Positions 3,961 through 29,411 are shown, numbered from the stretch's first letter. The stretch is DNA of 29,411 nucleotides from Candidatus Thorarchaeota archaeon (GCA_003345595.1 PRDI01000072.1:1-29411), one strand, 5' to 3'. Translations and numbers: made by a program. The notes: generated from the letters alone by a model not told the origin.

Positions 3961-4504
3961 TGCTTTTCACTCCGTTCTCCATAGTGTCTGCGAGTTGCTC
4001 CAGTTTCTCGATCGCCTTCCCGATTCTGGCTGCGAGCTTCCGACGCTGAAACTGTGTCAGCTCCGACATATCGGACGCTAGAGCCTCCGCGGCAATAGAA
4101 ACCGCGTTCATGTGGAAGTAGGCTCTGTCATTTGGATCCAATAGCTGGAGCCACAGCAGGCGATGGAGCCGCGTTCTGTCGTCCATCTGATTCTTGTGCC
4201 TGAAGACTTCTCTGAAACGTTCCTGTCCCTTACCTGACAGCCGATATGTGCTGATTCGTCCGCCTGCGCCGACAGCTTCAATCAGTCCTTCATGCCTCAT
4301 GGTGGCAAGCATTGGATAGATAGAGCCAGGACTTGGGCGCCACTTACCCTGACTGCGATTCTCCAGAACATCCATTATGTCTGTGCCAGACATCTCTTTC
4401 GACTGCAGCAGCCTTGCGATTACGAGTCTGAGGAACCCCCTCGGTACCGACTGCAGACCTCTCAGGTCTTCGCTTGTATTCTTGCTAGGCGCACCCAAGT
4501 TCAT
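3932..4504 (-). CDS. PadR-family winged-helix transcriptional regulator
   Basis: PRGFLRLVIARLL...MSGTDIM...WRPSPGSIYPML...EGLI...YRLSGKG is the PadR wHTH pattern. It overlaps the downstream ABC gene by 29 bp. Confidence 0.9.
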   Translation of the reverse strand: MNLGAPSKNTSEDLRGLQSVPRGFLRLVIARLLQSKEMSGTDIMDVLENRSQGKWRPSPGSIYPMLATMRHEGLIEAVGAGGRISTYRLSGKGQERFREVFRHKNQMDDRTRLHRLLWLQLLDPNDRAYFHMNAVSIAAEALASDMSELTQFQRRKLAARIGKAIEKLEQLADTMENGVKSSDGSENSSD

Positions 4505-4532
4505 GTCACCAGCTCAGGATGGCGAAGGACTC

Positions 4533-4552
4533 CAATATCGGATACGATATTG
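4533..4552. promoter_or_regulatory. Palindromic operator 1 (probable PadR site)
   Basis: Perfect inverted repeat CAATATCG-gata-CGATATTG, about 30 bp upstream of the padR start. Confidence 0.7.
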
Positions 4553-4567
4553 CGACGCGGCGGCTCT

Positions 4568-4585
4568 TATCGGATGCGATATAAA
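4568..4585 (-). promoter_or_regulatory. Palindromic operator 2 overlapping the candidate TATA box of the padR-ABC operon
   Basis: TATCG-gatg-CGATA (4568-4581) has the same core as operator 1, 32 bp away. Minus-strand TTTATA at 4585-4580 overlaps it. Confidence 0.62.
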
Positions 4586-4620
4586 GATGGCGATTGGGCC
4601 ATAATAGATTGAGCTGTCAC

Positions 4621-5364
4621 CTAGTTCGAAGGACACTGTAATGGGAACTCAGTCACATCTTTGACCAAAGGAAATGCGACGTTCAGTACAGTCGTATGAT
4701 CGATCACGATCTTGGTCTGCGCCGCGTTGTGAACATGCCCGTGCACAATAACGTCCGGCCGGGCAAGTTCCATTATCTTGGATACCCACCATGAGAATGC
4801 ATTCGAGTGATTCTCACGCGCCCCTTGGACTAGAGGACTATAATGGACCAAGAGAATCGTGTGTGTAGAGGTATTAGCAGCCTCGGCGAGCAACTTTGAC
4901 AACCGTTCTGCACGTTTCTCAAGAGACTTTCGAATCGAGGACGTTCTGCCAACTTGTGAAACCACACGGTCCGGTACCACTGGCGAAGCTCCCACTATGA
5001 CTACTTTGGCTTCGCCTATGTCAACCCTGAACGTCGTATCCTCAAGGAACTTGATTCTGTGTCCAACAAGACGTACTACTTCTTCTCTAACGTCCCGATT
5101 CTCCTCATTACCAAAGCATGCGACAATCGGGGTGTCATCACCGAAACGAGAGTTGACGGCATCGGCGACCTTCTTATACTCGTGAACACTGCCAGACTCG
5201 ATCATGTCACCTGCTAGCAAGAACACGTCTGGCCTGCGGCATGTCGATATGGATGTTCGGAATTCATCGAGGTATCTAGGACTGTGAACGTCAGAAACTG
5301 CTGCCACATACAGTGCCTTGTTTCTGCTATCTCCTTGCACAATCATCGAAACGCATGAATGCAT
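4621..5364 (-). CDS. Calcineurin-like metallophosphoesterase
   Basis: Motifs SDVH, AGD, GNEE, VHY and HGHVH occur in canonical order. The start may be the ATG at 5346. Confidence 0.85.
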   Translation of the reverse strand: MHSCVSMIVQGDSRNKALYVAAVSDVHSPRYLDEFRTSISTCRRPDVFLLAGDMIESGSVHEYKKVADAVNSRFGDDTPIVACFGNEENRDVREEVVRLVGHRIKFLEDTTFRVDIGEAKVVIVGASPVVPDRVVSQVGRTSSIRKSLEKRAERLSKLLAEAANTSTHTILLVHYSPLVQGARENHSNAFSWWVSKIMELARPDVIVHGHVHNAAQTKIVIDHTTVLNVAFPLVKDVTEFPLQCPSN

Positions 5365-14333: not shown

Positions 14334-17300
14334 ATCATACCAGAAGAATAGTCCCGCTCATCTTCCTTGCTATCGTCCTCTTAGTCCCCGTCCTCTCACC
14401 TACCGTGCTTGGCAGCTACTCGTTAGCCCAGACCACCGGCAGCCCCCAGAACAACGACGGGTCACAGACTGTTGACCTAGGCAGCGGGAACACCGTTCGT
14501 CTGGACGAAGGAGAAGAGCTACACAGGTTTGTGTTAACAGATCAAGGATGGACTGAGTGGACTGGTGTGTCATCCCCCCTGACTGGTGGGGAATTCGGCA
14601 ACAGCTCCAATATCTTCGCTGGCCTCGCAATGAAGTACCTGACGACTAACGTCACAACAGGCACTACTGCGAGCATTCCCACTGGGACCGGATGGCAAGC
14701 GTACAGCACAAGTGCATCGGTTACCAGTCTGTCAGAGAACAGGACATGGACACAAAACCCCGACTTCAAGACGGCACCCAGTTCCTCTGATTGGACACTG
14801 GGTGTGACAAATGTGGCTGGCTCAAGCACTCCAACATCAGTATACAACGCAACAGGCCACGGTACAGGGAATGGTGCGATAGACCTTGAGGTCGACTCAA
14901 CATCGGGAAGTGCACCCTATTACTATGACGCAGGTGACCTGGCATGGGCAAGGCAGACCATGACAATCCCGAGAGGGACTGTCGTCTGGGCTGGATTGAC
15001 TCTGGACTACTGGGCGGACACAAGAGACGACACTCACTACGGCATGACAGGATCGTTCTCAATATATGTGATTGTGGAGGGCACGACTATCTGGGAAACC
15101 GTCTTCGACGAGATTGATGCCGAGGAGACTTGGTACAATAGCGGTATGAGCTTTGTTCCAACGTCAGTGTTCAATCTACCCACCGACCAAGCCGTCGCTA
15201 TAGAGGTTGGGCTCTGGAGCAAGCAGTCTGTGGGCTACACTCCCGATATCGGGCCGCGAGCCAAGCTTGACAACATTGAGCTCTACGTCAAGACCAGAGC
15301 TACTCCAACGAACGTCAACCTAAAGATGAATGGCGTCACAGTTGCAAGCGGCACAGGCTACGGCAGTGGCACTGTCATTCAGAATCCTGCTACACCATGG
15401 ACCAGTAATCCTGTGAAGCTAAACTTCACGTGGACACCGACACCAGTCAACCCTGTCCCGAACAGGACAATAGCTGTAGAGTTTGACGTCAACGTGAACA
15501 TGTTTGCTCGACGACTAAACACACTCACCGTCTATGACATCAATCCGCTGGCATATGGTGAGAGGTTCACTATACAGAATGGATCGAATGCGAACTATAT
15601 CACCTACTTCTATGCCGATATTCCTTCAGGCTACCCGAACAGATACTTCTTCAATGAGTCGTTACCACTGAACAGGGATGTCTATTTTGTTGGGAAGCCG
15701 CTGGCACCTTCAACCAACCTCACCACAGGTTGGACTGGAGGACAGGTGGGCAGCGGATATCTCAACGTGTCCACCTATCAGGTAGCGACAGAGGCCGGCA
15801 GGTACGGCTACTGGCGTATGCAAAGCAGCTCAACCAACATGATCACTGATCTCACGATGTACGACCCCGGCGACAGCAACTGGAAGAGAACTGTCAATCT
15901 TAGAGCTGGAGACAGCTCCAGGATCCGTGCTTTCGTTGGTGCATCATACACAGGATCCATTGCCAACATCACCGTGTTCAGTCCTGAAGGCGAGAAGTGG
16001 TACAGCGTCAACGCCACAGCCGATGGCTCGGGCTATGCCACAACGCCCTTCTTGACATTCGCTGGCTCCAACGCAAGCGCCGGGTCGTGGATGATCCAAG
16101 CAGCGACCAACAACGTGGGGACGAGCGGCAAATGGACCTCAACAGGTTTCTTCAGGAGAGCATTCACAATTACTCACTCTTCTGAGCTCTTGCTAGAGTA
16201 CCCAACAGACGCAGTCGGAACATGGACAACAAACGTAACTTACGGAAGCCTGTTGCTCATCATCATGAAGGCCAATGACACAGACAGTTCGGTGCTTGTT
16301 GCCGGCGGCGAACTAACACTCAACTGGGCTCCAGGCAGCGACACCTTCGACGACAGCGGCAACGGACAATACACAAAGGTCGTCGACACATCGTTGCTCA
16401 ACGGTGCTGGACGTTACGCCATGACGCTTCAGTGGACCGCATCCAGCTATGACAATGCAAATGCGGTCCTGTACATAAACGTGAATTACGCCGCCACTCT
16501 CGAATCTCCTCAATATCCAGGAGTATCTGGACCAGTTGGGAGCGTCGGTATCTTCACCGTCAACTTCAGGAACGTGAATGGCACTGGAATCACTAACGGC
16601 GTGATAGCCTGCAACTGGTCTTCATCCTATACAGTCACGAATCTTGGTCTTGGGTCCTACAGGATTACTGTCAACACAATCGGCATTGCGCTCGACGAGT
16701 ACCCTGTGAATGTCACTGCCTTGGCGCCGTTTGTCAACCCTCAGACCATGCTGATGTTCGTAGAGGTCAGAGAGGTCTACAATACTGTCGCCTACACTGC
16801 AAACCAGCTCTCGATACCTGTGGGAGAGTCTGCGTCTTTCAATGTGACATGGAGAGACACTGACAACAATGTGCCCGTAACCGGATGGAGCAGTGCAATC
16901 TCCTGCAACTGGACATCTCTACATAGCAGCGGCGAACAGAACTTCACAGTGACCGAGCCATCACCCGGTATCTACGAAGTTACTGTCTTCACGGAGTCAG
17001 ATGATCCACTGACAGTAGGCGGCAAGTTCTATAGAGTAGTCTTCAATGTGGCACGCTATCACTATCAGAACCACACTTTCACAATCGATGTGGAGATACG
17101 CAGCCATAACACACTCTTCATGCTGGACGAGCCAATTGAACAGACACCCTACAACTTCAATATCGTTGCCCTCGTGCTCTTTGAGGACACAGACCTTGCT
17201 GTAGGCATTGACAACACAAGCGGATACGTACATATCGCAGTGACCTCACCCGGTCTGAGTCAGCTGAAGTTCGCTATCACCGGCTCGACGTTCGGCACAG

Positions 17301-20300
17301 GTCACTACAACATCACGATTGCCAGCAATCAGTGGGGCTCGGCAGGCTGGAAGAACCTGACCATCAGTGTCAGCTGGACTGGCGGAGTTGCCAAGTACTT
17401 CGGCAAGACAATCAACACGTCTGTCAGAGTACTGGGGACGGACACCGACCTATACCTCGAGGTCGCTCCCACTGCAACCTACTACCTGAACAACCTTACC
17501 TTCACATTGGTCTATTGGGATGTTGTCAACTCAACCAGAATATCCAACTCCACGGGCAATGTGATCTTGGCGATAGTGCCGATTACTGGAGGACATCCGG
17601 TGACACAGAACCAGTTCAATGTGAAAGAGTCGATCTCGACTCCAGGGACGTATGGCTTCAAACTCAACAGCTCACTGTTCCAGAAGTGCGGCACCTTCTT
17701 CTTCAGACTAGACTTCATGTGGAAGAGTGGTGCCCCGCCGTTGTATGAGAACGGGACCATGGAGGTCACATTAATCGTCTTAGAACAGCCAACCTATGCT
17801 GACCTCAGTCCCGTGCAGAGCACTGCATTTGGCGAGATAGCAGTTCTGAACTTCACGTTCGTCGATTCCCTACGAACATCGAGAATCCAGAACAGCAGCC
17901 AGTTGACAGTCCGCCTTAATGAGGGAAGTGCCTCGTACACCAAGACTTATGACTCGCTTACTCGCACTTTCTCGATACTCATCAATACTACAAGCTTGGG
18001 CGGAGTTGGGTCCTTCACCCTCCATCTGAATCTTACCTGGACCGGACAGCCATTCTATGCGGCTGTCACCAGCAAGGATTTCACAGTGATAGTTATCCTC
18101 AGGAGCACTCAGCTGACCCACCTGTCATTCTTGCCGCCTCAGTATGGGAGCAGCGCAAGCATCGAGTTCATCTACACCGACCTAGTTGCAGGCTCCTCCG
18201 CAGGTATGACTGGAACCCTTGTTTTGAACGCAACTCTTGCCGGGCATTACAGCGTTACATCGCTTGGAAACGGCCACTATCGGGTCACACTTGACACCTC
18301 GGCATTCGCATCAGACGGCCGATTCACAATCAATGCCACGATTGTATACACTGGAAGTAGGTTCGCAAGCAATGCGGCCGAGTTCTTCAGCATGACCGTA
18401 CTGAGACGCCTCACTCAGCTGGGTTACCAGAGCCCGGACCCAACTGCTTACCTTGAGAACGTCAGCTTCACTGTGACATACTCTGACGACAGTACTGGAC
18501 TAGGTATTTCGGGCGCAACAGTTTCACTGAGCTGTTCAAACTCCTCTGAGAGCCTCTTACTCAACGTGAACTACTGGATAATCTACCTAGGCTCCGGGAA
18601 GTACCAGATACTTGTCAATGCTTCATCGCTCGGGGTACCAGCATCCTACGTTCTCAATGTGACTACATCCAGAACAGGGACACCGTTCTACATGCCAGCA
18701 AGCAGAAACGTGAACTCAATAGTTACGCAGCGAGCAACTCAGATACTCATCACTCAGACGCCAAGTGACACCCCATTCAGAGAGAATGTGACCTTCAGGT
18801 TCAGGTTCTTTGACTACATTTCTGGCTCTGCCATAGCTATCAACAAGAACCAGATCACGCTGATGCACGGAAGTTCCAGTGAGATTTATGCATCGAACTA
18901 CTCACTGACGAACTATGGCACCTACTACGAGATCAGCTTCAACTCAACGGTGTTGGACTCAGTGCAACTAGTCACCAGCCGCCAGATCACTCTGTCCATT
19001 GATGCGAGCGCGGGTGTGCCCTACTACGCATCAAGAACATCCACGACGTACGTCACCACCATACAGAGGCCAACCCAGATTCTCTTCCCTCTAGTTCAGG
19101 AAACGGCCTTTGCGGACAACATGACACTGCTCTTCGACTACATTGACTACATCTCAGGTGAGGGCATAGAGGGAGCGGATGTAGCTCTGGCAAGCACCAA
19201 CCTGACAACACCAGTGTTCTATATGGTAGAGCTGGGTGATGGCTCATATGAGGTTCTTGTCCCTAGCCAACAGTTTGGCTCACTCGGAACGGTCTACTTC
19301 ACACTCACAGTGAACAAGACAGGTATACCGCACCACTATGCAGATAGGACTGCGGCAAACGTGCCTGCCGCGATACGGGCAATCCTGACTACTCTTCAGG
19401 CGGACGTCCCCGCTGCTGGAACCCGTCCCATAGGAGACCCATTTGTCGTCAACGTGACTCTATCGGACTTCGACCACAGCATTCGAGTGAGTGGAGCAAC
19501 CATCACTTGTGACTGGACAGCGCGGTATGGCAAAACAGCAACGATACAAGAGATTGGCAGCGGCGTCTATAGGATAACGCTCAACACGACAGGCCTAGTC
19601 GCACAACCCTACCTGTTCACGGTCCAAGCTCAGAAGACCTTCTACCAGATATCCAACATCAGTGTTGTGGCACAGCCAGGGTCGTCGGCGGTGCAGATCT
19701 CGCTTGATAGCTCGACCTACTATGCTGACTGGGGAGAGGAGGTCACGATTAGGATGACTGTGAGAGAAACATACTACTTCTCTCTTGTTCCTGGAATGAA
19801 TGCGACCCTTTTGTGGAACGGCTCAGTCTATCAGTTCTCCGACCTAGGCAATGGCACTTACGTTCTCATGCTGGAAACAGGGAATGCTGACTATGGATAC
19901 CACGAACCCAAGGTTTCAGTTTCCAGGACGTACTACCAGACCCGTGAGCAAACCTTCGGTCTAGTCGTGTCGAGAGCCGCCGGTCAAATACTGGTCTCGA
20001 GAGCAGCGGGCGAAACATTGCCAGGCATGTCTGCCTATGATGTCGTGCTGGGCACCTCTGGCACATTCATCGTCTATCTCAATGACACGACAAATGGCCA
20101 ACCTGTCATAGCTGACAATGCCACGATTGACTGGAATAACCAAGTGTATTCTCTGGTATACAACGGGACTCCAGGTTTCTACTTGGCGAACGTGGATGTA
20201 ACCGGACTCGCTATAGGGCAGTACGAAGCTGTCATGCGCGCATTCGAAACGAACCACGTATTCCTTGACTATGTTCACTATATCAATGTGGTACCAGTGC

Positions 20301-22132
20301 CGACAACGCTGCAGCTCGTTGGCGGCGCCCTGTCGGTCACTGTCATCTATGGCAACATGTTGGACGTCGTTGTGCAGTACAACGACACGTACTTCGGAGG
20401 CACGGTTGGCGGAGCTAACGTTTCCTTCGTATTGGCCGGCGTAACTGGACTACTTCAGGGACAGCCGGACGGCACGTACAGAGCACTGATCAACACGAGC
20501 TCATTGGCAGCTGAAAGCATCTATCTGCGAGTCTTCGCTTCAAAAGCGGGCTACGCGGCCACACAAAGGACATTCATAGCCAATGTCCTACCCCGACCCA
20601 CCGGAGCTACAATCAACATTCCGACGAGGGATGGATACTATGGTGACAACGTGTCATTCCTAGTTTACTTCAACGATACGTTGCGCAACACACCTATTTC
20701 GGGCGCAACAGCTTCCACGCACTGGGAGGGAGGAGTAGCCAATGTCATAGACTTGGGCAATGGCTCCTATCTCATTGAGGTGAAACTATCTCTAACGACC
20801 CCACGACTGTACGATTTCAGCATCGCGCTTGGAAAGAGCAACTACGAGTTCGCGCAGATTGAAGCGTATCTTGTCATCAAGCCAACACCTGCTGAGATAC
20901 AGGGGTTGACGACGCTTTCGGTACCAGTCAATGATACAGTATCTGTTGTATTCAATGTACTGAATGCTCTCAGCAGCCAATTCGTGACAGGCCTCAATGG
21001 TGCATCCTACTGGACTGGCGTGGGTACGTTTCCATTGCAGACAATGGCAAACGGTAGCTATTCAATGCAGATACCTGGCACGCTTCCGATCGGCGTGTAC
21101 GAGATTGATGTAGCCTTCGCTACTTCGGTCTATCAGATAGTCCCTCTCAGATTCAGCCTGAACGTGAGGACAGTGCTGACTGAGCTCCGAACACCGGATA
21201 CCACGTTAAGCACAGTTCCGGGTGCGACCATTATTGTGCCATTCAACTACATCGACCTGGACCACCATGTTGGCATCAGCGGAGTGACGCCGCTAGTCAC
21301 GATTGGCACAGGAAATGCGACATACTACCCACAGCTGACCAGCGAACCCAGCAACAACGGTAGCTACCTTCTGTACTTCACTGTGAATCGGGGTGGCACA
21401 TTCTACGTCACGGTCCAGTTCGCAAGAGGGCAATACGGCACTCAGACTATCCTCCTGACCATTCTATCTGACATATCTGGAGAGGAGGCGTTCCTCCAGA
21501 ATGTGAGGATCGTAGGAGGATCAGCCTTCATTCTTCTGGCGCTATTGGTCGTCGTCTATGTAAAGGTCCTAAGTGTACCCAAACAGATTCGCAGCATGAA
21601 CAGGATGATTAAAGATCTGAGGCGCGGCAAGATACCCAAACCGCCGTCTGCTCCTTCTAGGGCAGAAACTGTGTTGGACATCGTGAACAGCAATGTGAGC
21701 GATGTAAAGGTCTGGAAGGTTCTTGAGGACATTGCACCAGAGCCCATCTTGGTGGTGATACCCGAGGTCAACGAGCTCTTGGAGAAGTTGGCCAAGATAA
21801 CGGGGCTTGGAACACAGGAAGTCGAGGCCTTCAGAACAGACTTGGCACGGATGAAGCCTAGTGAGAGACCAGGCTTTCTCCGGGAGGTTATTGCTCAAGA
21901 AGAGGCGCGACGTGCCGAAGCCTTAGCGGCCGCGCCGGGCGTCAAGCCGCCGGAGAAAGTCGAGAAGGAAGTCCTAGGCACAAAGCCGACCGAACTAGAG
22001 GAACTTAGAGCCAAGCTTCAGAAGAAGGGCATGGCTCCTGAGGAAGTCGAACTCATCGTCGAGCAAGCCAAGACGCTATCTAAGGCAGACCTTCAGGCTT
22101 TGCTGGATAGCCTTGGCATTGAACTACGATAG
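14330..22132 (+). CDS. Giant type-I membrane surface glycoprotein B, full-length paralog of A lacking the NHL propeller
   Basis: 2600 aa with a signal peptide. Colinear motifs with A include ENRTW, TGHGTGNGA, LDNIxLYVK, RRAFxI and YVxVLSVPK. It has 17 Ig-like repeats, TM IVGGSAFILLALLVVVYV (21509-21562) and a 189-aa tail. Confidence 0.9.
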   Translation: MNHTRRIVPLIFLAIVLLVPVLSPTVLGSYSLAQTTGSPQNNDGSQTVDLGSGNTVRLDEGEELHRFVLTDQGWTEWTGVSSPLTGGEFGNSSNIFAGLAMKYLTTNVTTGTTASIPTGTGWQAYSTSASVTSLSENRTWTQNPDFKTAPSSSDWTLGVTNVAGSSTPTSVYNATGHGTGNGAIDLEVDSTSGSAPYYYDAGDLAWARQTMTIPRGTVVWAGLTLDYWADTRDDTHYGMTGSFSIYVIVEGTTIWETVFDEIDAEETWYNSGMSFVPTSVFNLPTDQAVAIEVGLWSKQSVGYTPDIGPRAKLDNIELYVKTRATPTNVNLKMNGVTVASGTGYGSGTVIQNPATPWTSNPVKLNFTWTPTPVNPVPNRTIAVEFDVNVNMFARRLNTLTVYDINPLAYGERFTIQNGSNANYITYFYADIPSGYPNRYFFNESLPLNRDVYFVGKPLAPSTNLTTGWTGGQVGSGYLNVSTYQVATEAGRYGYWRMQSSSTNMITDLTMYDPGDSNWKRTVNLRAGDSSRIRAFVGASYTGSIANITVFSPEGEKWYSVNATADGSGYATTPFLTFAGSNASAGSWMIQAATNNVGTSGKWTSTGFFRRAFTITHSSELLLEYPTDAVGTWTTNVTYGSLLLIIMKANDTDSSVLVAGGELTLNWAPGSDTFDDSGNGQYTKVVDTSLLNGAGRYAMTLQWTASSYDNANAVLYINVNYAATLESPQYPGVSGPVGSVGIFTVNFRNVNGTGITNGVIACNWSSSYTVTNLGLGSYRITVNTIGIALDEYPVNVTALAPFVNPQTMLMFVEVREVYNTVAYTANQLSIPVGESASFNVTWRDTDNNVPVTGWSSAISCNWTSLHSSGEQNFTVTEPSPGIYEVTVFTESDDPLTVGGKFYRVVFNVARYHYQNHTFTIDVEIRSHNTLFMLDEPIEQTPYNFNIVALVLFEDTDLAVGIDNTSGYVHIAVTSPGLSQLKFAITGSTFGTGHYNITIASNQWGSAGWKNLTISVSWTGGVAKYFGKTINTSVRVLGTDTDLYLEVAPTATYYLNNLTFTLVYWDVVNSTRISNSTGNVILAIVPITGGHPVTQNQFNVKESISTPGTYGFKLNSSLFQKCGTFFFRLDFMWKSGAPPLYENGTMEVTLIVLEQPTYADLSPVQSTAFGEIAVLNFTFVDSLRTSRIQNSSQLTVRLNEGSASYTKTYDSLTRTFSILINTTSLGGVGSFTLHLNLTWTGQPFYAAVTSKDFTVIVILRSTQLTHLSFLPPQYGSSASIEFIYTDLVAGSSAGMTGTLVLNATLAGHYSVTSLGNGHYRVTLDTSAFASDGRFTINATIVYTGSRFASNAAEFFSMTVLRRLTQLGYQSPDPTAYLENVSFTVTYSDDSTGLGISGATVSLSCSNSSESLLLNVNYWIIYLGSGKYQILVNASSLGVPASYVLNVTTSRTGTPFYMPASRNVNSIVTQRATQILITQTPSDTPFRENVTFRFRFFDYISGSAIAINKNQITLMHGSSSEIYASNYSLTNYGTYYEISFNSTVLDSVQLVTSRQITLSIDASAGVPYYASRTSTTYVTTIQRPTQILFPLVQETAFADNMTLLFDYIDYISGEGIEGADVALASTNLTTPVFYMVELGDGSYEVLVPSQQFGSLGTVYFTLTVNKTGIPHHYADRTAANVPAAIRAILTTLQADVPAAGTRPIGDPFVVNVTLSDFDHSIRVSGATITCDWTARYGKTATIQEIGSGVYRITLNTTGLVAQPYLFTVQAQKTFYQISNISVVAQPGSSAVQISLDSSTYYADWGEEVTIRMTVRETYYFSLVPGMNATLLWNGSVYQFSDLGNGTYVLMLETGNADYGYHEPKVSVSRTYYQTREQTFGLVVSRAAGQILVSRAAGETLPGMSAYDVVLGTSGTFIVYLNDTTNGQPVIADNATIDWNNQVYSLVYNGTPGFYLANVDVTGLAIGQYEAVMRAFETNHVFLDYVHYINVVPVPTTLQLVGGALSVTVIYGNMLDVVVQYNDTYFGGTVGGANVSFVLAGVTGLLQGQPDGTYRALINTSSLAAESIYLRVFASKAGYAATQRTFIANVLPRPTGATINIPTRDGYYGDNVSFLVYFNDTLRNTPISGATASTHWEGGVANVIDLGNGSYLIEVKLSLTTPRLYDFSIALGKSNYEFAQIEAYLVIKPTPAEIQGLTTLSVPVNDTVSVVFNVLNALSSQFVTGLNGASYWTGVGTFPLQTMANGSYSMQIPGTLPIGVYEIDVAFATSVYQIVPLRFSLNVRTVLTELRTPDTTLSTVPGATIIVPFNYIDLDHHVGISGVTPLVTIGTGNATYYPQLTSEPSNNGSYLLYFTVNRGGTFYVTVQFARGQYGTQTILLTILSDISGEEAFLQNVRIVGGSAFILLALLVVVYVKVLSVPKQIRSMNRMIKDLRRGKIPKPPSAPSRAETVLDIVNSNVSDVKVWKVLEDIAPEPILVVIPEVNELLEKLAKITGLGTQEVEAFRTDLARMKPSERPGFLREVIAQEEARRAEALAAAPGVKPPEKVEKEVLGTKPTELEELRAKLQKKGMAPEEVELIVEQAKTLSKADLQALLDSLGIELR
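16175..21476 (+). repeat. 17 tandem Ig-like beta-sandwich repeats (protein B stalk)
   Basis: Same repeat consensus as in A. By eye, repeat n of B matches repeat n of A. Confidence 0.75.
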
Positions 22133-22162: not shown

Positions 22163-23197
22163 CTAGGGCTCACGCTTCCCGTAGGTCTTCTCAACCTCTT
22201 TGAGTATGTCGGAATGGGTTTCGAAATACTTCCTGGCCGGCTCCAGCATTTCAACCAAAGCTGATATAACCGACTGCTTCACATCATCGGGATGGAGCTT
22301 ATTCTCGGCGTAGGCCTTCTCGAACTCACGTGCCGATGTGAACTCGGCATCGCCTCCAAACTTCTCTTTCCGACGAACGGTGAACTTGCCGTATCTTGGG
22401 AGAAGGATTAGGCTCACTGTGGAAGCGATGGCGTTCTGCTCCAGCACGCCGGCAGGACAGTAGGCTTTGGTTATTGCCGTCTTGATCATCTCGGGGCTGT
22501 CGGTCACTCTGATATGTGACAGGGGGTCGCTTGCGGACATCTTGGATCCCCCACCCTTCAGTGAGGGAAGCAGAGGCATGAAGATGTAGATTCCTTTCTG
22601 AAAGTCGAGTTCCTCAAGAAACTCGCGCCCGAGCATGTAGATGTTCCTCTGATCTCTGCCGCCCACAGTGACATCTGCTTGGAGGTACTTGACATCAAGG
22701 ATCTGCAGTATGGGGTACAAGAGTTCTGACACCTTTGGCTCGTCTTTCATCCTCACGACTTCGCTCGCTGCGCGAGTTGCCCTTGTCGTTGTCACCATTG
22801 CTGAGAGCTTGTAGACATCCTCGATGTATTCTCGCTTAGCTTGGTAGCTCGAACCTCTGACGAACTTCATCTTCTTGGCGTATGGTCCCAAGACAGCTTT
22901 CATGCACTCCTCGTAGTAGGTTGAGCGCACGTCCATCAGCTCAAACGAAGTCTTTTGACTATCCAAGTGGGCGTGATAATCAGCCACCAGAATTGTGCCC
23001 TTTCCGCCGAGGTTCGTGAGATCAATCAGCTTGTTCAGAGGAATCATATATGCAAAGTGGAAGGGTCCGGTTGGAGCAGTCCCGTAGTAGAAGTTGAAGC
23101 TCGGTTTCGCAAGGACTGCCTTCAGTTCATCTGGCGTTACGATTTCTTCGCTGTTGTTCGCGGCCTTGTTGAACCGCTGTTCATCTGGCCCACTCAT
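22163..23197 (-). CDS. tyrS: Tyrosine--tRNA ligase (archaeal/eukaryotic type)
   Basis: YYGTAPTGPFHFAY (HIGH-equivalent), ADYHAHLD, LLYPILQILD, GGRDQR, KMSAS, AYCP and LHPDDVK. ATG 23197 is preferred over GTG 23206 because that GTG lies inside the GGTGA SD 5 nt upstream of the ATG. Confidence 0.96.
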   Translation of the reverse strand: MSGPDEQRFNKAANNSEEIVTPDELKAVLAKPSFNFYYGTAPTGPFHFAYMIPLNKLIDLTNLGGKGTILVADYHAHLDSQKTSFELMDVRSTYYEECMKAVLGPYAKKMKFVRGSSYQAKREYIEDVYKLSAMVTTTRATRAASEVVRMKDEPKVSELLYPILQILDVKYLQADVTVGGRDQRNIYMLGREFLEELDFQKGIYIFMPLLPSLKGGGSKMSASDPLSHIRVTDSPEMIKTAITKAYCPAGVLEQNAIASTVSLILLPRYGKFTVRRKEKFGGDAEFTSAREFEKAYAENKLHPDDVKQSVISALVEMLEPARKYFETHSDILKEVEKTYGKREP

Positions 23198-23286
23198 TGT
23201 CGTCACCTTTTTGGTGAGCTACCAGGCTCTTGATGGAAAACAGCCGAGGCCCGGCCTCACCAGCGCAGGGCAACTCCATTCTTGTT

Positions 23287-24327
23287 TTAAGGTTGGTGGG
23301 CAGTCAGCTGAGCGGAACTTTGTTTCGCACGATTCAACAGTCTAAGCGCCACAAAACCAACGACAACACTGAACCACAGTGTCACGAACCGGATTAGAAT
23401 CGTGGCGGCACTCGCGGCAGCATTGGTGAAACTCAGCAGACCCATCATGAGAAGCACAGAGGTCGCCTCATAGGTCCCGAGACCCCCGGGAAGGAACGTC
23501 ACTGCACCAATAACAGAAGATGCAGAATGGATGAACGTCGCGTCGACCAGAAGCATGAATGACACCCAAGAGAGAGTCGGTAGGCCAGCTCCCGACATGA
23601 TACTCAGAAGAATCCAGAGCTCCAAACACTCCATGAACCATCCAGGCATGCTTATCATTGTGCTGATAATCATCGCCCGAGGACACAGCGTCTTTGTCAT
23701 CGTGTCCTCAATCAAGTCACAGCTTTCACCGAATCTCTTGAGAGGGCCGACGGACGTGAGCCGCTTCAGGACCTTGTTGTATAGCTCCTTGCGTCCCAGG
23801 ACGATGGCACCAACCAGAACAAGACCGCCCAGCATGATGACAGTGAACAGAGCATCGCTGGTGCTGATACCTATGCTGAAACCCAGTATCGCGAGCAATA
23901 CCATGGCAAGCAAGTCCGTGACACGTTCGGATACAACTACCGGAGCAGTCTTGGCCACAGGCGTTCCGTCAATCTCGTAGATGAAGTAGCCCTTCACGGC
24001 TTCGCCAATCTTCGCCGGCGTGACTGTCAGTGTGAATCCAGCCAGGAAGACTCTGAAGCTCACACTATGCCCAAGCTGCACGCCGATTCGGTTCAAGTAG
24101 AACTGCCACTTTGCATAGCGAATCAGATAGTTCAGAAAAGACAGACCTATCATCACTGCGAGCACCCAAAGGGGGACTGTCGCAAGTGCTGCTGCAATGT
24201 CATCCACTCTGGCGTATAGCCCAATGAGCGCGTACACTAATGTTCCGAGTATGACAAAAACAACAACTCTGCGGAAACTGATAAGGGAACTCTTCGCCTC
24301 TGGAGCGGCACATTCATCCTGAGTCAA
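23287..24327 (-). CDS. UPF0104 / lysylphosphatidylglycerol-synthase TM-domain protein (putative lipid-linked sugar flippase)
   Basis: Multi-pass hydrophobic protein with family motifs R..KW..YL, TPAKIGE, ERVTD, PGGLGTYE and IRFVTLW. The TTG start overlaps the PHP stop (TTGA). Confidence 0.85.
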   Translation of the reverse strand: MTQDECAAPEAKSSLISFRRVVVFVILGTLVYALIGLYARVDDIAAALATVPLWVLAVMIGLSFLNYLIRYAKWQFYLNRIGVQLGHSVSFRVFLAGFTLTVTPAKIGEAVKGYFIYEIDGTPVAKTAPVVVSERVTDLLAMVLLAILGFSIGISTSDALFTVIMLGGLVLVGAIVLGRKELYNKVLKRLTSVGPLKRFGESCDLIEDTMTKTLCPRAMIISTMISMPGWFMECLELWILLSIMSGAGLPTLSWVSFMLLVDATFIHSASSVIGAVTFLPGGLGTYEATSVLLMMGLLSFTNAAASAATILIRFVTLWFSVVVGFVALRLLNRAKQSSAQLTAHQP

Positions 24328-24995
24328 TAGACAAGCCTCCTAGCCCTCTGCCAAATCATTGTTGGAGCCTGCCATAGCACGAATGAGCAATGGCCGGTTA
24401 TCTGTGTCCTTCCGCGCCTAAGAGCTTCGTAGACATCATCGACGGTCTCGATGTCTTGAAACCAGGTCTTTGCATGTCCGAGTTCAAGGAAGGAGTGCGC
24501 GTCGCTTCCCGCAGTCATGGGTTTTCCAAGGCGTTTTGCCAGACGTTTCGCCCAAGTGTTGAAGAGGTTGATGGCGCACCTTGAGTTGATGCCTTCCACA
24601 AGATCGATGTGACGTACAATTAGAGACTCTGGCAAATGCCTCCTGACTGCTGACTCCCTTCTGAACAAGTCCCTAGGGTGGGGCAACACCGCAATAGCGT
24701 TCTGGTCTCTGATGTTTTCGGCGATCTCAGCGAAGGACTGCTTGGGTATCGGCTCGGTGACGAATAACCCGATAATCTCTCCATAGTCCGTTGACATAAA
24801 CTCGCAGCTATTGATAAGGAAACGACCATCATGCACGACAGGTCGAAGAAAGGATGGAGCCTTGTGTTCAGTGATTGCCATTCCTGTCAGTTCTCTTCGC
24901 TTCATCCACTTGAACACAGACTTGGGGTTCATGAGCCCGTCTTTGGAGTGGATTGTGTGAGTGTGAAGGTCAAATGCGGAGAGCCGGTCGTTCAA
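24324..24995 (-). CDS. PHP-domain metal-dependent phosphoesterase
   Basis: DLHTHTIHSKDG, AITEH, E, PHP, EGIN and GSDAH motifs. Confidence 0.9.
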   Translation of the reverse strand: MNDRLSAFDLHTHTIHSKDGLMNPKSVFKWMKRRELTGMAITEHKAPSFLRPVVHDGRFLINSCEFMSTDYGEIIGLFVTEPIPKQSFAEIAENIRDQNAIAVLPHPRDLFRRESAVRRHLPESLIVRHIDLVEGINSRCAINLFNTWAKRLAKRLGKPMTAGSDAHSFLELGHAKTWFQDIETVDDVYEALRRGRTQITGHCSFVLWQAPTMIWQRARRLVY

Positions 24996-25004
24996 TGTTC
25001 ACAC

Positions 25005-25982
25005 CTACGGAGGTGGCGTCAATGGGAACAGGGGCGGGAACAAGGCCATGAAGAACTCCATCACAGGTTGCCAGAAGAACAGCGTCCATATGAGAACGAG
25101 GCCGAAGAGAACCAACCCGGCCAACATCACATTGTCTTTCAACGCTAGATGTGGCTTTCTGCCAATCGGAGAACCAGACTCTAGGAGGTAGACATACCTC
25201 ATCACAATGCCAGCCACAATCGGCACGGTCATCATCACAGGCTGAGTGTTCATCACGTCTCTGAAGTTCTCATAGCAATATAGGGCGTAGAACATCACGA
25301 CCCAGGTGGCGGCCATCGTGATACCATGATTGAGCATGTCATCTGTATATTCCCAGAAGACGGCCTTGTGTTGCGGAGCAAGGTCTCCAAGGAGCTGTAG
25401 TTCATTCTTTCTCTTCCCGAAGCCCAAGACCAAAGCAACGAAGAACACGCCTATCACCAGCCATGAGGTGAATGGGACATGTATTAGGAATGTGCCAGCA
25501 ATCGCCCTGACAATGAAGCCGACGGCAATCGTGACCACATCAATGACGGCCTTATTCCGGAGATAGAAGTTGTAGGCCTGTGAGTTGATGATATAGAGTA
25601 ACACGAGCATGAAGAACACGCCATTGAGCACATAAGCCGACACCAGCCCAACCGCTAACAGCACTAGGGCAAGAGTCACAGCTTTGCCCTTGCTTGCGCG
25701 TCCCGACGGCAATGGTCTGTTCCTCTTCTCGGGGTGAGCGGCATCCTTCTCCAAATCCTGCACATCATTCAGGACGTATCCAGCACTGGATACCGCACAG
25801 AATACTAGGAAGCCTAGGATAAGAGGTGGGTAGTACTTCCAGAAATTGAAGATGGCTGGCAGCGTTTCCCAAGGCCACTGCTTCGGGATCTCCACGAAGA
25901 CTATGGCAACGAAGACGAGCAGATTCTTGTACCACTGGTAAGGGCGCATGAGTTGGACGTAGTCGCGGATAGCCATCTTCAA
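25005..25982 (-). CDS. UbiA-family prenyltransferase, decaprenyl-phosphate phosphoribosyltransferase (Rv3806c-like) subfamily
   Basis: RPYQWYKN, YVLNDVQDLEKDAAHPEKRNRPLPSG, IDVVTIAVGFIVRAIAG and GKRKNEL motifs with many TM helices. Start is TTG 25982 or ATG 25976. Confidence 0.85.
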   Translation of the reverse strand: MKMAIRDYVQLMRPYQWYKNLLVFVAIVFVEIPKQWPWETLPAIFNFWKYYPPLILGFLVFCAVSSAGYVLNDVQDLEKDAAHPEKRNRPLPSGRASKGKAVTLALVLLAVGLVSAYVLNGVFFMLVLLYIINSQAYNFYLRNKAVIDVVTIAVGFIVRAIAGTFLIHVPFTSWLVIGVFFVALVLGFGKRKNELQLLGDLAPQHKAVFWEYTDDMLNHGITMAATWVVMFYALYCYENFRDVMNTQPVMMTVPIVAGIVMRYVYLLESGSPIGRKPHLALKDNVMLAGLVLFGLVLIWTLFFWQPVMEFFMALFPPLFPLTPPP

Positions 25983-25997
25983 TCAATCCTCATTCTG

Positions 25998-27077
25998 TCA
26001 GCCGGAATATGACTTCCATAGCTCGCCCCATTCGGTTTCCTCAAGGAACCATCGCACCCACTTTCTTCCTCGGAGGGGTAACCAGATTCCATCATGATAG
26101 AATCCAGAGAGTTGCGCTGGGAGCCACATCAGAGGAGACCGGAACAAGAATGTTTCCATGCCCGGGAACTTGAGAAAGCCCCTGTTCCAGGCAATCACTG
26201 GACTCTTGCCAGGCTTCAGATGGAAATTCGGCAGGTCCTCCCACGAATCGAAATCACCCACAATCTCGATCCTGTCGGGGTTGCACTCTCCAAGTCCTAG
26301 CTCGTTGGCGATTCTGAGCTTGTGCACCAGACTCTGGTCGATGCCCATCAGTCTCGTTTGGACAGTGTCAGCCGCTACCATGTCATGAGTAGCCAAAAGC
26401 ACGTTACCTATCTTGGGTACCATTGTGCGTGGTCCTGCACCGTCGCCGAGCACTGTTCCGTCAGTGACGACAAACTCAGAGTTGGATATCGTCTTCTGGA
26501 TGAGCAGCAGGTCCACAAGAACCTCGTGAATCTTCAGGTGAGCGAGGTGCCTCTTCTTGGTTAGATAGAGACCAAATGAGTCCTTCATTGCACCGGTCAT
26601 CTGTGTGTGGCCGTGGGTCTTGATCGTCGGCAGATGTATGATGTTGGTCCGGAATATCTCTCGGGGTGCAACGACCTCGCCAAAGATGTCCTCAAGAACA
26701 AGTGTTCTCCTGGGAAGCTTGACGTCGACGTAGTGCGCCTTGATGAGAGGCAGAAACCGCACCTTGTGCTTCTTCATCACTGGGTACCAGTTGTTCCCTC
26801 GCGCGCCGGCATAGATGTTGGTTACAACGGTCTCATTCTCGACGGCCTGTATCTTGCGGGCTTCAAATCCGTCACTGATCAGCTTCGTCAGGACGCCATC
26901 GAGTATGTACGGATTCGTAGAGCAGGCCGGATAGAACTTACTCCATGAGAGATTGAGCTTGACAGTAGTGACAAGATCCCTGGACACGTGCCGCCTGTAC
27001 TCAGCGAGGTCCATCACCCGGGCCACATCGCTGAGCACCGTCTTCGGAGATGTCCTGACCACTGCCACCTTTGTCAT
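25998..27077 (-). CDS. DUF362 domain-containing protein
   Basis: VKLN, TNP, LPTIKTH...TGAMKDSFG, DG...GAGP, DMVAAD and GLGE motifs, with no C-terminal ferredoxin Cys motif. ATG 27077 is preferred because GGGTG lies upstream. Confidence 0.82.
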   Translation of the reverse strand: MTKVAVVRTSPKTVLSDVARVMDLAEYRRHVSRDLVTTVKLNLSWSKFYPACSTNPYILDGVLTKLISDGFEARKIQAVENETVVTNIYAGARGNNWYPVMKKHKVRFLPLIKAHYVDVKLPRRTLVLEDIFGEVVAPREIFRTNIIHLPTIKTHGHTQMTGAMKDSFGLYLTKKRHLAHLKIHEVLVDLLLIQKTISNSEFVVTDGTVLGDGAGPRTMVPKIGNVLLATHDMVAADTVQTRLMGIDQSLVHKLRIANELGLGECNPDRIEIVGDFDSWEDLPNFHLKPGKSPVIAWNRGFLKFPGMETFLFRSPLMWLPAQLSGFYHDGIWLPLRGRKWVRWFLEETEWGELWKSYSG

Positions 27078-27326: not shown

Positions 27327-28217
27327 TCAGATTGAAACGGGTCTAACCTTCAAGCCTTCATCCATGCGAATTACCTTCGGGCTCACTCTGCCGGCATAGG
27401 AGGCACTGAACACGCTCATCAGACCACCATCAAAGAACTCCTGAAAACCATCTTCGTACACTTCGTGGCTTCTCACGATCAGCTTAATACTGAGGTCTGA
27501 AGTGAACTCATCGAAGGCAAGGCTGCCAAACTCTCTTGCCCGATCACTCCTGCTGCTTGCTCTGAAGTGGAAGTCTGCCTCTCTCGGATCGTTCCACACC
27601 ATCTGAAATGCAATGTCATCAGGGAAGTTGATATTATGCCTCTCAATCTCAGCTATTTGCTCGCTCGAGTTAACCCCTTCAGGGATGCCACCGTGGCAGG
27701 CAAAAACACCACTTGGACTGAAGGCGGCCAGAGGAAGGGATTCGAACACTTTCAAGTAGCTGTCGAACAGGCCCGGCGAGTAGTGCCTAGATACCTCGGA
27801 GTAGAAACCATAGACCTCTGCAATCTCCTTCGACTCATGGTTTCCTCTTAGCATGAACACCCTATCCGAGTGCTCCAGCGCCAAAGACATCACAAGATTA
27901 AAGGTTTCCACCTGCTGAGGCCCTCTGTCAGCGTAGTCGCCAAGGAAGACGACCGAGTGCTTGGGATGTCGAGCCATCAATTCGCGCACTGCGATTGCCG
28001 ACTTCAGTTCTCCATGCAGGTCTCCAACGTAGAACAGGTTGGACTCTGGGGTAACGACTATGTTAGGCAAATCGGCATTCATGTCGTGCAGCGCACTTGC
28101 CATGCGGCGTATCTCTTCCACAGACAGATCCGGGCGCCATGCGAATTCTGAATCGGTGGGCATAGGACTCTGCTTCAATCCGACTGTGCCAATCTTAAGT
28201 CTTTGTGCCTTCCCCAA
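27327..28217 (-). CDS. PPP-family Ser/Thr protein phosphatase (PP1/PP2A-like)
   Basis: GDLHGE, GDYADRG, LRGNHE, HGGI, WNDP, FG, RSHE and SVFSASY. Alternative start ATG 28163. Confidence 0.92.
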   Translation of the reverse strand: MGKAQRLKIGTVGLKQSPMPTDSEFAWRPDLSVEEIRRMASALHDMNADLPNIVVTPESNLFYVGDLHGELKSAIAVRELMARHPKHSVVFLGDYADRGPQQVETFNLVMSLALEHSDRVFMLRGNHESKEIAEVYGFYSEVSRHYSPGLFDSYLKVFESLPLAAFSPSGVFACHGGIPEGVNSSEQIAEIERHNINFPDDIAFQMVWNDPREADFHFRASSRSDRAREFGSLAFDEFTSDLSIKLIVRSHEVYEDGFQEFFDGGLMSVFSASYAGRVSPKVIRMDEGLKVRPVSI

Positions 28218-28258
28218 TGTGATCTAACAAGCAGATGGTTGAAGAGCCAAACAGACTG

Positions 28259-28762
28259 TTATTCCCAACCTAACGCTCTGAACACGAAGTCAACAGCCGC
28301 CTCAGGTGTCGATGCGGAGTACACCGAGTCGGTTCTCTGGTCGTCAATCCTATCGCCAGCAAGCCTTTGAGCCCAGCCCCCGGATGTTGCGAGCGCCACC
28401 ACGGGCTTCTTAGAGAACCATGCAATAGCCATCTCACTCAGAGTGCCTGCATGTCCTCCAACCGCTATCACTGCGTCACCTGACAACGCCACGAGGAAGT
28501 TCCTCCCACGGCCGAACCCTGATGGAATCGCGATGTCAACAAACCGATTGGCGTCTTTCTTGTCCTCAGAAGGGAGAATGCCTACAGTCACACCGTTACG
28601 CTTCTTCGCCCCGCGACAGGCGGCTTCCATCGCACCCCCGAGACCGCCACATACAAGCACAACACCCCTTCTTGCAATCTCCTCGCCTACCTTCTCTGCC
28701 ATCTTCGACGCAGTTTCGTCAACCTCTGAACCGCCAATAACTGAGATAGCTCTTAGGGGCAT
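28259..28762 (-). CDS. LOG-family (TIGR00725-like) Rossmann-fold protein
   Basis: CGGLGGAMEAACRGA, TVGILP, RNFLV and GGHAGTLSE motifs. Confidence 0.88.
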   Translation of the reverse strand: MPLRAISVIGGSEVDETASKMAEKVGEEIARRGVVLVCGGLGGAMEAACRGAKKRNGVTVGILPSEDKKDANRFVDIAIPSGFGRGRNFLVALSGDAVIAVGGHAGTLSEMAIAWFSKKPVVALATSGGWAQRLAGDRIDDQRTDSVYSASTPEAAVDFVFRALGWE

Positions 28763-28765
28763 TTG

Positions 28766-29411
28766 TCATCCGCACTCTTCCCATTGACCACTGCGTGCAT
28801 CGCCCCGGTGAAGCTTGCTCTTTAGCATATTGTAGGCGGAAACCGGCAGTCGTCCATCCCGGACTCTCACACCAGCCTCCTCTAGTAGGGTCCGACGTTC
28901 CCATGGGTCGAAGCGGCGTGAGCCATCTCGTGGCAGGAAGTTCGAACACCGCGACGCGCAACTTATCTGAGATTCCACATCACGGGGCAAGTCCTTTCTA
29001 ACCAAGGCATTCAGCTTCGCCATTGTAAGAAGGGCCCGTGACCCGATTCTGTCACCCGACCATCCTTTGTCCAAACCCACTATACAGATTCGTGATTCCC
29101 TCTTGCACTCACGAATGCACTGTTCGCACACGAAGGAATTGAAAAGCACAGTTCCGGTTTTGAGGTCCAGCCTTGCGACACCCTCCCGGAAGGGAATGAT
29201 ACATACCGACTGAGTTGCTTCGACGCCGAGTGAGTAGCCTAGCTGTCTGATCTCTGCAATCTCCTCATCAGTATTCAGAGGCAATACGTGTTGCTCCGGT
29301 AACACTGCAAACTCAGGGCAAGCATTGTCGTCAAGTAGAACGAGAAGAGGGGGATGCAGACCTTCCTCCTGTTGTTTCGGCAGTGTCCCGGCAAGTATCT
29401 CGAGACTCTGA
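28766..29411 (-). CDS. Hypothetical Cys-rich protein, partial at the 5' end
   Basis: The frame stays open upstream of GTG 29305 to the window edge (QSLEILAGTLPKQQEEGLHPPLLVLLDDNACPEFAVLPEQ...). The stop lies 3 nt before the LOG start. Contains CEQCIRECKRESRIC and CASRC. Confidence 0.7.
   Translation of the reverse strand, partial: QSLEILAGTLPKQQEEGLHPPLLVLLDDNACPEFAVLPEQHVLPLNTDEEIAEIRQLGYSLGVEATQSVCIIPFREGVARLDLKTGTVLFNSFVCEQCIRECKRESRICIVGLDKGWSGDRIGSRALLTMAKLNALVRKDLPRDVESQISCASRCSNFLPRDGSRRFDPWERRTLLEEAGVRVRDGRLPVSAYNMLKSKLHRGDARSGQWEECG

Follow-up and report, generated by a model that had tools for sequence, protein, structure and literature searches.

The window analyzed here is the whole 29,411-nucleotide stretch of DNA from Candidatus Thorarchaeota archaeon (GCA_003345595.1, PRDI01000072.1), which corresponds to contig C72 of a 2.7-Mb genome that is 83% complete. 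Four neighboring genes on its minus strand are the subject of this report:

25998..27077, minus strand: DUF362 protein, 359 amino acids from ATG (PF04015, 76 bits)
25005..25976, minus strand: UbiA protein, 323 amino acids, with ATG at 25976 and an alternative TTG at 25982 (PF01040, 74 bits)
24324..24995, minus strand: PHP phosphoesterase, 223 amino acids (PHP_C, 59.5 bits, plus the PHP N-terminus)
23287..24327, minus strand: MprF-type flippase-domain protein (UPF0104/PplT), 346 amino acids (PF03706, LPG_synthase_TM, 134.8 bits)

The DUF362 and UbiA genes are separated by 21 nucleotides (15 with the TTG start) and the UbiA and PHP genes by 9, and the PHP stop and the flippase start share a TTGA overlap. 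A hydropathy scan gave no membrane segments in DUF362 or PHP, eight in UbiA and at least six in the flippase. With moderate confidence, we favor the joint reading that the four genes form one operon and that its proteins synthesize a polyprenyl (dolichyl)-phosphate-linked pentofuranose and export it as a donor for extracytoplasmic glycosylation, a reading in which we infer every enzyme function.

About 17 kb around the DUF362 orthologue was taken from each of 20 related genomes. The DUF362-UbiA-PHP-flippase block was found in the same order and orientation in 19 of these 20 loci; the remaining relative had only DUF362, 38% identical, at a contig end. Inside the family the flanks are syntenic too, comprising SLOG, calcineurin-like phosphoesterase, tyrosyl-tRNA synthetase (TyrRS) and the C-terminus of a second giant protein. 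In G025, from another family of the same order, and in G022, the four genes have stayed together despite rearranged flanks. Because the block survives these rearrangements, we take the four genes to be the unit, and their arrangement is not due to chance. Two claims of a preliminary description of this DNA are thereby borne out, namely that the genes are tightly packed and co-directional, as seen in the minus-strand open reading frames (ORFs), the spacing and the TTGA overlap, and that they are linked, as seen in 19 of 20 relatives and in the recurrence of the DUF362-UbiA pair across archaeal and bacterial phyla in glycan-synthesis neighborhoods. DUF362 is the best conserved of the four proteins, with 78-84% identity among relatives (across genera) compared to 57-75% for UbiA, 55-74% for PHP and 53-67% for the flippase.

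The UbiA protein, which has no fused HAD or other domain, is supported by sequence comparison as an Rv3806c-type protein and thus a candidate 5-phosphoribosyltransferase acting between phosphoribosyl pyrophosphate (PRPP) and polyprenyl phosphate. Its top NCBIfam model is NF008977, decaprenyl-phosphate phosphoribosyltransferase, which scores 206.7 bits. The curated cut-off, 234, delimits the bacterial equivalog and not the family at large, and bacterial UbiA partners of the same DUF362 clade exceed it in 17 of 40 genomes. The next-ranking models are HAD-UbiA fusions, and ordinary prenyltransferase models reach at most 63 bits, so that the Rv3806c models lead all prenyltransferase models by more than 140 bits. 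Against solved structures, it matched M. tuberculosis Rv3806c over almost the whole length (8j8j, E 1.9e-31, residues 6-285), compared to 8e-6 for digeranylgeranylglyceryl phosphate (DGGGP) synthase. The preliminary description had proposed a phosphoribosyltransferase and had named grouping with DGGGP-synthase or quinone-type enzymes as one refutation; by bit scores and the 8j8j E-value the protein does not group with those, and the proposal is supported. The Mg and PRPP ligands of the Rv3806c structure are listed as R22, K28, Y70, N73, D77, K87, R90, Q135, Y138, K143 and Y157, and conservation of its phosphoribose sites does not extend to the wider UbiA superfamily (PMC10994848). In the 8j8j alignment eight of the eleven are identical here (R11, K17, Y67, N70, D74, K84, R87 and Y135) and a ninth is conservatively changed (K143 to R140). 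A second UbiA gene, on contig C66, is free for membrane lipid synthesis.

The operon's DUF362 protein belongs to a tight, full-length clade in which archaeal and bacterial members are 45-51% identical. A pattern scan with one genome per species found carriers in at least 589 species, among them other Asgard lineages, DPANN groups, Methanosarcinales, Thermoplasmatales and Altiarchaeota in the archaea and Aminicenantes, Planctomycetota, Armatimonadota and Zixibacteria in the bacteria. We sampled 59 DUF362 loci from outside the Thorarchaeota, clustering the neighbors and scanning them with Pfam. An Rv3806c-like UbiA gene occurred in 37 of the 59, at most 200 nucleotides away in 22, and it lay within 3 kb of DUF362 in 26 of the 34 loci having at least 3 kb on both sides.

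The coupling extends to whole genomes. Adjacent or not, an Rv3806c-like UbiA was present in 40/40 diverse carrier genomes (as the single match in 39) and in 1/14 control genomes. Among 41 Asgard genomes, DUF362 and UbiA were both present in 26 and both not found in 14, and one further genome had a 39%-identical DUF362 without UbiA. In an even sample of 151 genomes from one bacterial phylum, UbiA was found in 49/50 carriers vs 37/101 non-carriers (35/99 without the unpublished genomes G104 and G128, with conclusions unchanged), a comparison in which related genomes are not independent and Fisher values are only descriptive and overstate the associations. UbiA is thus found without DUF362 and the reverse almost never, and this asymmetry, in which DUF362 requires UbiA while UbiA does without DUF362, fits an optional tailoring enzyme downstream in the UbiA pathway. 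In the literature we found no link of DUF362 to UbiA or sugar metabolism, and a protein Atlas search with DUF362 returned DUF362 clusters only.

The neighborhoods of the pair point to glycan synthesis. GT-C glycosyltransferases of the PMT_2 type were directly adjacent to DUF362-UbiA in at least 15 of the 59 outside loci, PHP lay beside DUF362 in 11, the MprF-type flippase in 8, and AglB/STT3 nearby in 5. Further recurrent neighbors were Wzx, GT2/GT4, UDP-glucose dehydrogenase, UDP-N-acetylglucosamine (UDP-GlcNAc) 2-epimerase and nucleotidyltransferases. In cultured Methanolobus bombayensis DSM 7082, a series of co-directional genes encodes a PglF-like dehydratase, a glycosyltransferase, a radical S-adenosylmethionine (SAM) protein, Wzx, GT2, DUF362, GT-C, UbiA, PHP and the flippase. 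Elsewhere in the genome of the window, four ORFs lie above the PMT_2 cut-off and two more below it; one of these, on contig C11, is homologous over its full length (E 5e-24) to the GT-C within the Methanolobus cluster.

A different composition is seen in DPANN-type loci (L084, L088, L107, L122 and L132; also L090, L101, L106, L108, L126 and L127), where the pair is joined by a flavin adenine dinucleotide (FAD) amine-oxidase-like gene that is translationally coupled to a second DUF362 paralogue, 25-27% identical. SAM methyltransferases and B12-binding radical SAM genes occur in the same loci. LarB and LarC, which belong to the nickel-pincer question taken up below, were missing in all five tested genomes with this second paralogue.

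Two further proteins of the operon fit other steps of such a pathway. PHP is a candidate 5'-phosphatase acting on polyprenyl-phospho-5-phosphoribose, as its context and intact metal site suggest. Its metal ligands (D9, H11, H13, H44, E65, E73, H106, D165 and H167) are invariant across 10 orthologues from five lineages. The protein had no sequence match in the PDB, and the fold search alone placed it: an AlphaFold2 (AF2) model with a predicted local distance difference test (pLDDT) score of 87 had as nearest Foldseek matches TM0559 (E 1e-11), the RNase AM PHP (2.5e-10) and the pAp phosphatase Cv1693, with uncharacterized PHP phosphoesterases among the closest folds. The flippase protein, a candidate translocase for the lipid-linked pentose, matches PF03706 over model positions 1-302 of 302 and TIGR00374 at 71.4 bits, above cut-off. 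Makarova and colleagues predicted UPF0104 proteins to be archaeal glycosylation flippases for lipid-linked sugars, and the C-terminal domain of AglD is a member of this family (PMC5898192).

An AF2 model of DUF362 built from 14 orthologues had a mean pLDDT of 91, and every significant PDB match in a Foldseek search with it was a LarA-family racemase (E 1.3e-6). VIA-align gave Z scores of 15.1-16.7 for ten LarA-family entries (6d6z, Z 16.7, root-mean-square deviation 2.8 Å over 210 aligned residues; 5huq, Z 15.1) and 14.0 for 4nar, the structure of the uncharacterized Thermotoga protein Q9WYS3, with the next unrelated entry at 6.0. DUF362 and DUF2088 are sister families of Pfam clan CL0471, and DUF362 has been used as the outgroup (PMC11770544). 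The relation to LarA, proposed in the preliminary description, is thus corroborated by the clan and by a fold match over both domains (Z 15-16.7). As modeled, DUF362 is a soluble protein with a LarA-like two-domain fold. By sequence it is more distant: the protein matches PF04015 alone and not Lar_N (DUF2088), iterated searches with hidden Markov models (HMMs) from the clade never reached LarA, and a PDB sequence search with the DUF362 profile returned nothing relevant. The Pfam DUF362 model does match the genome's own LarA homologue at 30 bits.

In a weak alignment from a small, diverse DUF362 profile (6.3 bits), K153-T-H155...A-M-K165 falls on K-A-H...A-L-K of this LarA homologue, a stretch that in turn aligns with H174...K184 of L. 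plantarum LarA at the same 10-residue spacing. H155 and K165 would then match the catalytic His174 and the cofactor-tethering Lys184 of LarA (His-x9-Lys), and H180 sits 15 residues past K165 compared to 16 for the LarA equivalent, H200. Inteins usually occupy functionally essential sites, and in some Thorarchaeota a mini-intein of about 160 amino acids (PF14890) lies between K153 and T154 of the KTHGH motif (L054 8618-9075, G022:C4; L075; P0061/P0062).

Comparison with paralogues separated family-wide core residues (K40, K153, H155, K165, R176, H180, D206, D232 and D237) from those specific to the clade (C52-S-T, E80-N-E-T, H148, H157, H184, R217 and the Y327-H328-D329 motif). A 70-residue C-terminal extension contains 21% W/F/Y vs 6.6% in the core and is probably a membrane-interface module. 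It is missing from the three other DUF362 paralogues of the window's genome and is present, with a different sequence, in the second DUF362 paralogue of DPANN UbiA clusters. DUF362 is the leading candidate for setting the identity of the pentose, by tailoring or epimerizing the lipid-linked sugar.

The preliminary description had suggested that DUF362 may fill the modifying or epimerizing step, as no DprE1/DprE2 is encoded in the window, and had named anti-correlation of its clade with dprE1/dprE2 as a check. None of 45 carrier genomes (that of the window, four high-quality relatives and 40 diverse genomes) had an ALO (DprE1-type) domain, and the Corynebacterium control was positive. The anti-correlation was not seen in the bacterial phylum, where ALO, a marker not specific to DprE1, occurred in 8/50 carriers vs 10/101 non-carriers. 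One non-carrier, G215, has an ALO match 340 nucleotides from its UbiA gene.

The LarA-like fold raises the question of whether DUF362 uses the nickel-pincer cofactor. Three LarA homologues and LarC are encoded in the window's genome. In this 83%-complete assembly no LarB or LarE scored above cut-off, but 5/5 high-quality relatives have both. In the bacterial phylum LarC occurs in 46/50 carriers vs 62/101 non-carriers, and in LarA-free genomes in 20/21 carriers vs 24/58 non-carriers, so that DUF362 predicts LarC (20/21) as well as LarA itself does (64/72). Five archaeal carriers without LarA, three of them DPANN with genomes of 1.0-1.6 Mb, hold larB and larC, which are adjacent in four. LarC is near-universal in the Asgard sample (37/41), which is uninformative. 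We regard nickel-pincer use by DUF362 as a serious possibility that the evidence leaves slightly disfavored.

Two related observations were made on the way these genes are arranged. Adjacent larB-larC without any LarA homologue is found in small archaeal genomes (G041:C161, G049:C18, G053:C41 and G052:C3), all with a UbiA-linked DUF362; these genomes carry an orphan nickel-pincer cofactor pathway. In the bacterial genome G093 (C66:1821-4736), 1.3 kb separates a DUF362-clade gene from a true homologue of LarA (Lar_N, E 5.6e-49).

In the pathway that we propose, UbiA would move 5-phosphoribose from PRPP onto polyprenyl phosphate, as its sequence and conserved ligands suggest, and PHP would then take off the 5'-phosphate. 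DUF362 would act on the resulting lipid-linked ribose, most likely by redox-neutral epimerization via a keto intermediate, which is the weakest step of the scheme; the product would be arabinofuranose or xylofuranose, and the enzyme, perhaps with the nickel-pincer cofactor, would stand in for mycobacterial DprE1/DprE2. The MprF-type flippase would carry the product to the outer face, where GT-C glycosyltransferases encoded elsewhere in the genome may use it. As judged from sequence, the pathway assignment is fairly secure, and the epimerase role of DUF362 and its cofactor are less so. In its most specific form, the proposal is that the UbiA-linked DUF362 clade is a nickel-pincer-dependent, single-protein, redox-neutral epimerase of polyprenyl-phosphate ribofuranose, the anaerobe's replacement for DprE1/DprE2, the first LarA-like enzyme on a lipid-linked sugar and one missing user of larBCE in LarA-free genomes; we advance this combination tentatively and consider it rather unlikely to hold in full. 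Recently described nickel-pincer users were found in other folds, with DUF362 not mentioned among them (PMC13524815).

Several results weigh against parts of this scheme. For UbiA, they are the score under the curated equivalog cut-off and the change of two ribose/5'-phosphate ligands of Rv3806c, Q135 to S132 (with Q133 adjacent) and Y157 to F154. PHP and the flippase, at 11 and 8 of 59 loci, are not obligatory partners of the DUF362-UbiA pair, no GT-C gene was found inside the four-gene operon, and the genome-level associations are inflated by relatedness. The equivalence of DUF362 and LarA residues is drawn from the weak HMM alignment, spacing and fold; no equivalent of His108, the second catalytic histidine of LarA, was identified in DUF362, and hhalign gave no significant match between DUF362 and three LarA homologues. 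Concerning the cofactor, only 19/40 diverse carriers and 3/16 DPANN carriers were found to have LarC, and five DPANN also lack LarB yet keep the DUF362 His/Lys motif. Four LarA-bearing genomes without LarC give the size of the assembly-gap effect but do not explain the DPANN pattern. In about 100 DUF362 loci, larB, larC or larE was not found adjacent to the pair except for larC 2-3 kb from UbiA in two related bacterial genomes, a case that we rejected as a functional link, with phosphoglucose isomerase and GTP cyclohydrolase I around it marking housekeeping synteny.

The alternative that survives best keeps the pathway and changes the task of DUF362, which would oxidize or reduce the sugar to a keto or deoxy pentose, remove the 5'-phosphate, or serve without catalysis in hand-over to, or stabilization of, UbiA. 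With PHP beside the pair in only 11/59 outside loci, some carriers would need another phosphatase, but here the operon's own PHP, its metal site intact, already provides one. Ferredoxin-type cysteine clusters in some DUF362 proteins, such as the contig C64 paralogue, point to net redox chemistry in the family, as may the FAD amine-oxidase-like gene coupled to the second paralogue in DPANN clusters, and the cofactor gene larC is missing in many carriers; the only characterized fold relatives, on the other hand, are hydride-transfer racemases and epimerases. A purely scaffolding role fits poorly with the very high conservation and with an intein in the His/Lys motif, both of which favor catalysis. 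We judge a non-epimerase DUF362 unlikely, although it retains some weight.

It is improbable that the lipid acceptor is instead an archaeal phospholipid precursor, such as archaetidic acid, and that the operon builds an outer-leaflet pentosyl-phospholipid head group and not a glycosyl donor. The experimentally known cargoes of MprF-type flippases are indeed phospholipids, lysyl-phosphatidylglycerol (Lys-PG) and glucosaminyl-phosphatidylglycerol (GlcN-PG), and the operon has no GT-C gene, but elsewhere the DUF362-UbiA pair adjoins GT-C, AglB and Wzx, users of polyprenyl-linked donors, and it recurs in bacteria, whose lipids differ. UPF0104 is also fused to AglD, of the dolichyl-phosphate (Dol-P)-hexose synthase type, in archaea (PMC5898192).

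That UbiA is an ordinary prenyltransferase (DGGGP-synthase, quinone or haem O type) in a cluster of conserved synteny without common function is very improbable: the match covers the Pfam UbiA model only in part, the NF008977 score stays under the curated equivalog cut-off and the flanks (SLOG, Metallophos, TyrRS and giant protein) are syntenic in the family too, but Rv3806c-type models are ahead by more than 140 bits, the C66 gene is available for lipid synthesis, the phosphoribose ligands present here are not conserved in the wider superfamily (PMC10994848), and the block survives flank rearrangement while the pair recurs across phyla and both domains.

The remaining features around the operon, and its possible acceptors, are as follows:

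27327-28217, minus strand: calcineurin-like phosphoesterase (Metallophos), upstream of and co-directional with the operon
28259-28762, minus strand: SLOG/LDcluster4 protein, upstream and co-directional
within 27327-29410, minus strand: 214-amino-acid protein without Pfam match, upstream and co-directional
22163-23206, minus strand: TyrRS, adjoining the operon
14330-22132, plus strand: second giant surface protein, convergent to the operon

The three upstream genes are in conserved synteny throughout the family but rearranged in G025 and G022. The C-terminal 900 residues of the second giant protein are convergent to the operon in 16 of the 20 relatives' loci and show 42-63% identity where loci cover this region fully. 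They are absent beside the block in G025 and G022, and this synteny is limited to the family. The giant proteins may be the glycan acceptors, as the preliminary description suggested. Identity of the TyrRS beside the operon is 65-78% for most relatives; in three genera (L038, L043 and L044) a TyrRS at the same place is only 32-34% identical and once on the opposite strand, which suggests that it was swapped for another TyrRS type in those genera. At the other end of the window (2-5364, minus strand), upstream of the giant gene pair, lie two tandem MsbA-like ABC exporter genes, a PadR-type regulator and a metallophosphoesterase.

If the proposed pathway is true, a widespread DUF362 clade in at least 589 species of both domains would gain a concrete function open to assay, and PRPP-based lipid-linked pentofuranose synthesis, so far bacterial, would extend to Asgard, DPANN and methanogenic archaea. 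The pathway would also offer strict anaerobes without quinones or DprE1 a way to diversify pentoses. Should the nickel-pincer link be true, the cofactor would gain a new substrate class and some orphan larBCE sets would be explained. Methanolobus bombayensis DSM 7082, with the complete gene set within a glycan cluster, provides a cultured experimental handle.

Three known systems bear comparison with the operon. With the LarA superfamily of nickel-pincer 2-hydroxyacid racemases and epimerases (DUF2088; PDB 5HUQ, 6D6Z, 9EIA and 9Q3J), DUF362 shares the two-domain fold, clan CL0471 and, on the weak alignment, the His-x9-Lys motif. It differs in being PF04015, with a core about 60-70 residues shorter, no identified His108 equivalent and an added aromatic C-terminal tail; its presumed substrate is a lipid-linked sugar rather than a small 2-hydroxy acid, and many of its carrier genomes lack the cofactor genes. 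The mycobacterial decaprenyl-phosphoarabinose pathway begins with the same enzyme family, whose PRPP and Mg ligands are kept here, and the operon would follow its sequence of transfer, dephosphorylation, modification of a ribose hydroxyl and translocation. The later enzymes are of other kinds: the phosphatase there, Rv3807c, is of the PAP2 type whereas PHP is found here, epimerization there is carried out by an FAD oxidase and an NADH reductase whereas a homologue of the oxidase was not found here, and Rv3789 there is a small, multidrug-resistance-type transporter.

Of the systems described, the closest is the three-component extracytoplasmic pentofuranose glycosylation of Citrobacter youngae O1/O2 (ORF12-15; Kelly et al. 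2024, PMC11127046), made up of a polyprenyl-phosphoribose synthase equipped with a phosphatase, plus a flippase and a GT-C enzyme, with epimerases optional. As in that system, an Rv3806c-like polyprenyl-phosphoribose synthase would begin from PRPP; a dedicated phosphatase and a flippase would follow, an epimerase in the cytoplasm would be optional, and a GT-C would use the product outside the membrane. Here, however, the phosphatase is a separate PHP protein and not a fused HAD domain, the flippase is MprF-type and not MATE, and the auxiliary enzyme is a LarA-fold DUF362 in place of DprE1/E2 or ORF13; the operon contains no GT-C gene, whereas there a dedicated GT136 is linked to the synthase. 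The host is an Asgard archaeon, whereas the system was earlier described for bacteria only. By its predicted components, the operon follows the known three-component pentofuranose logic with three components from other protein families, in archaea.

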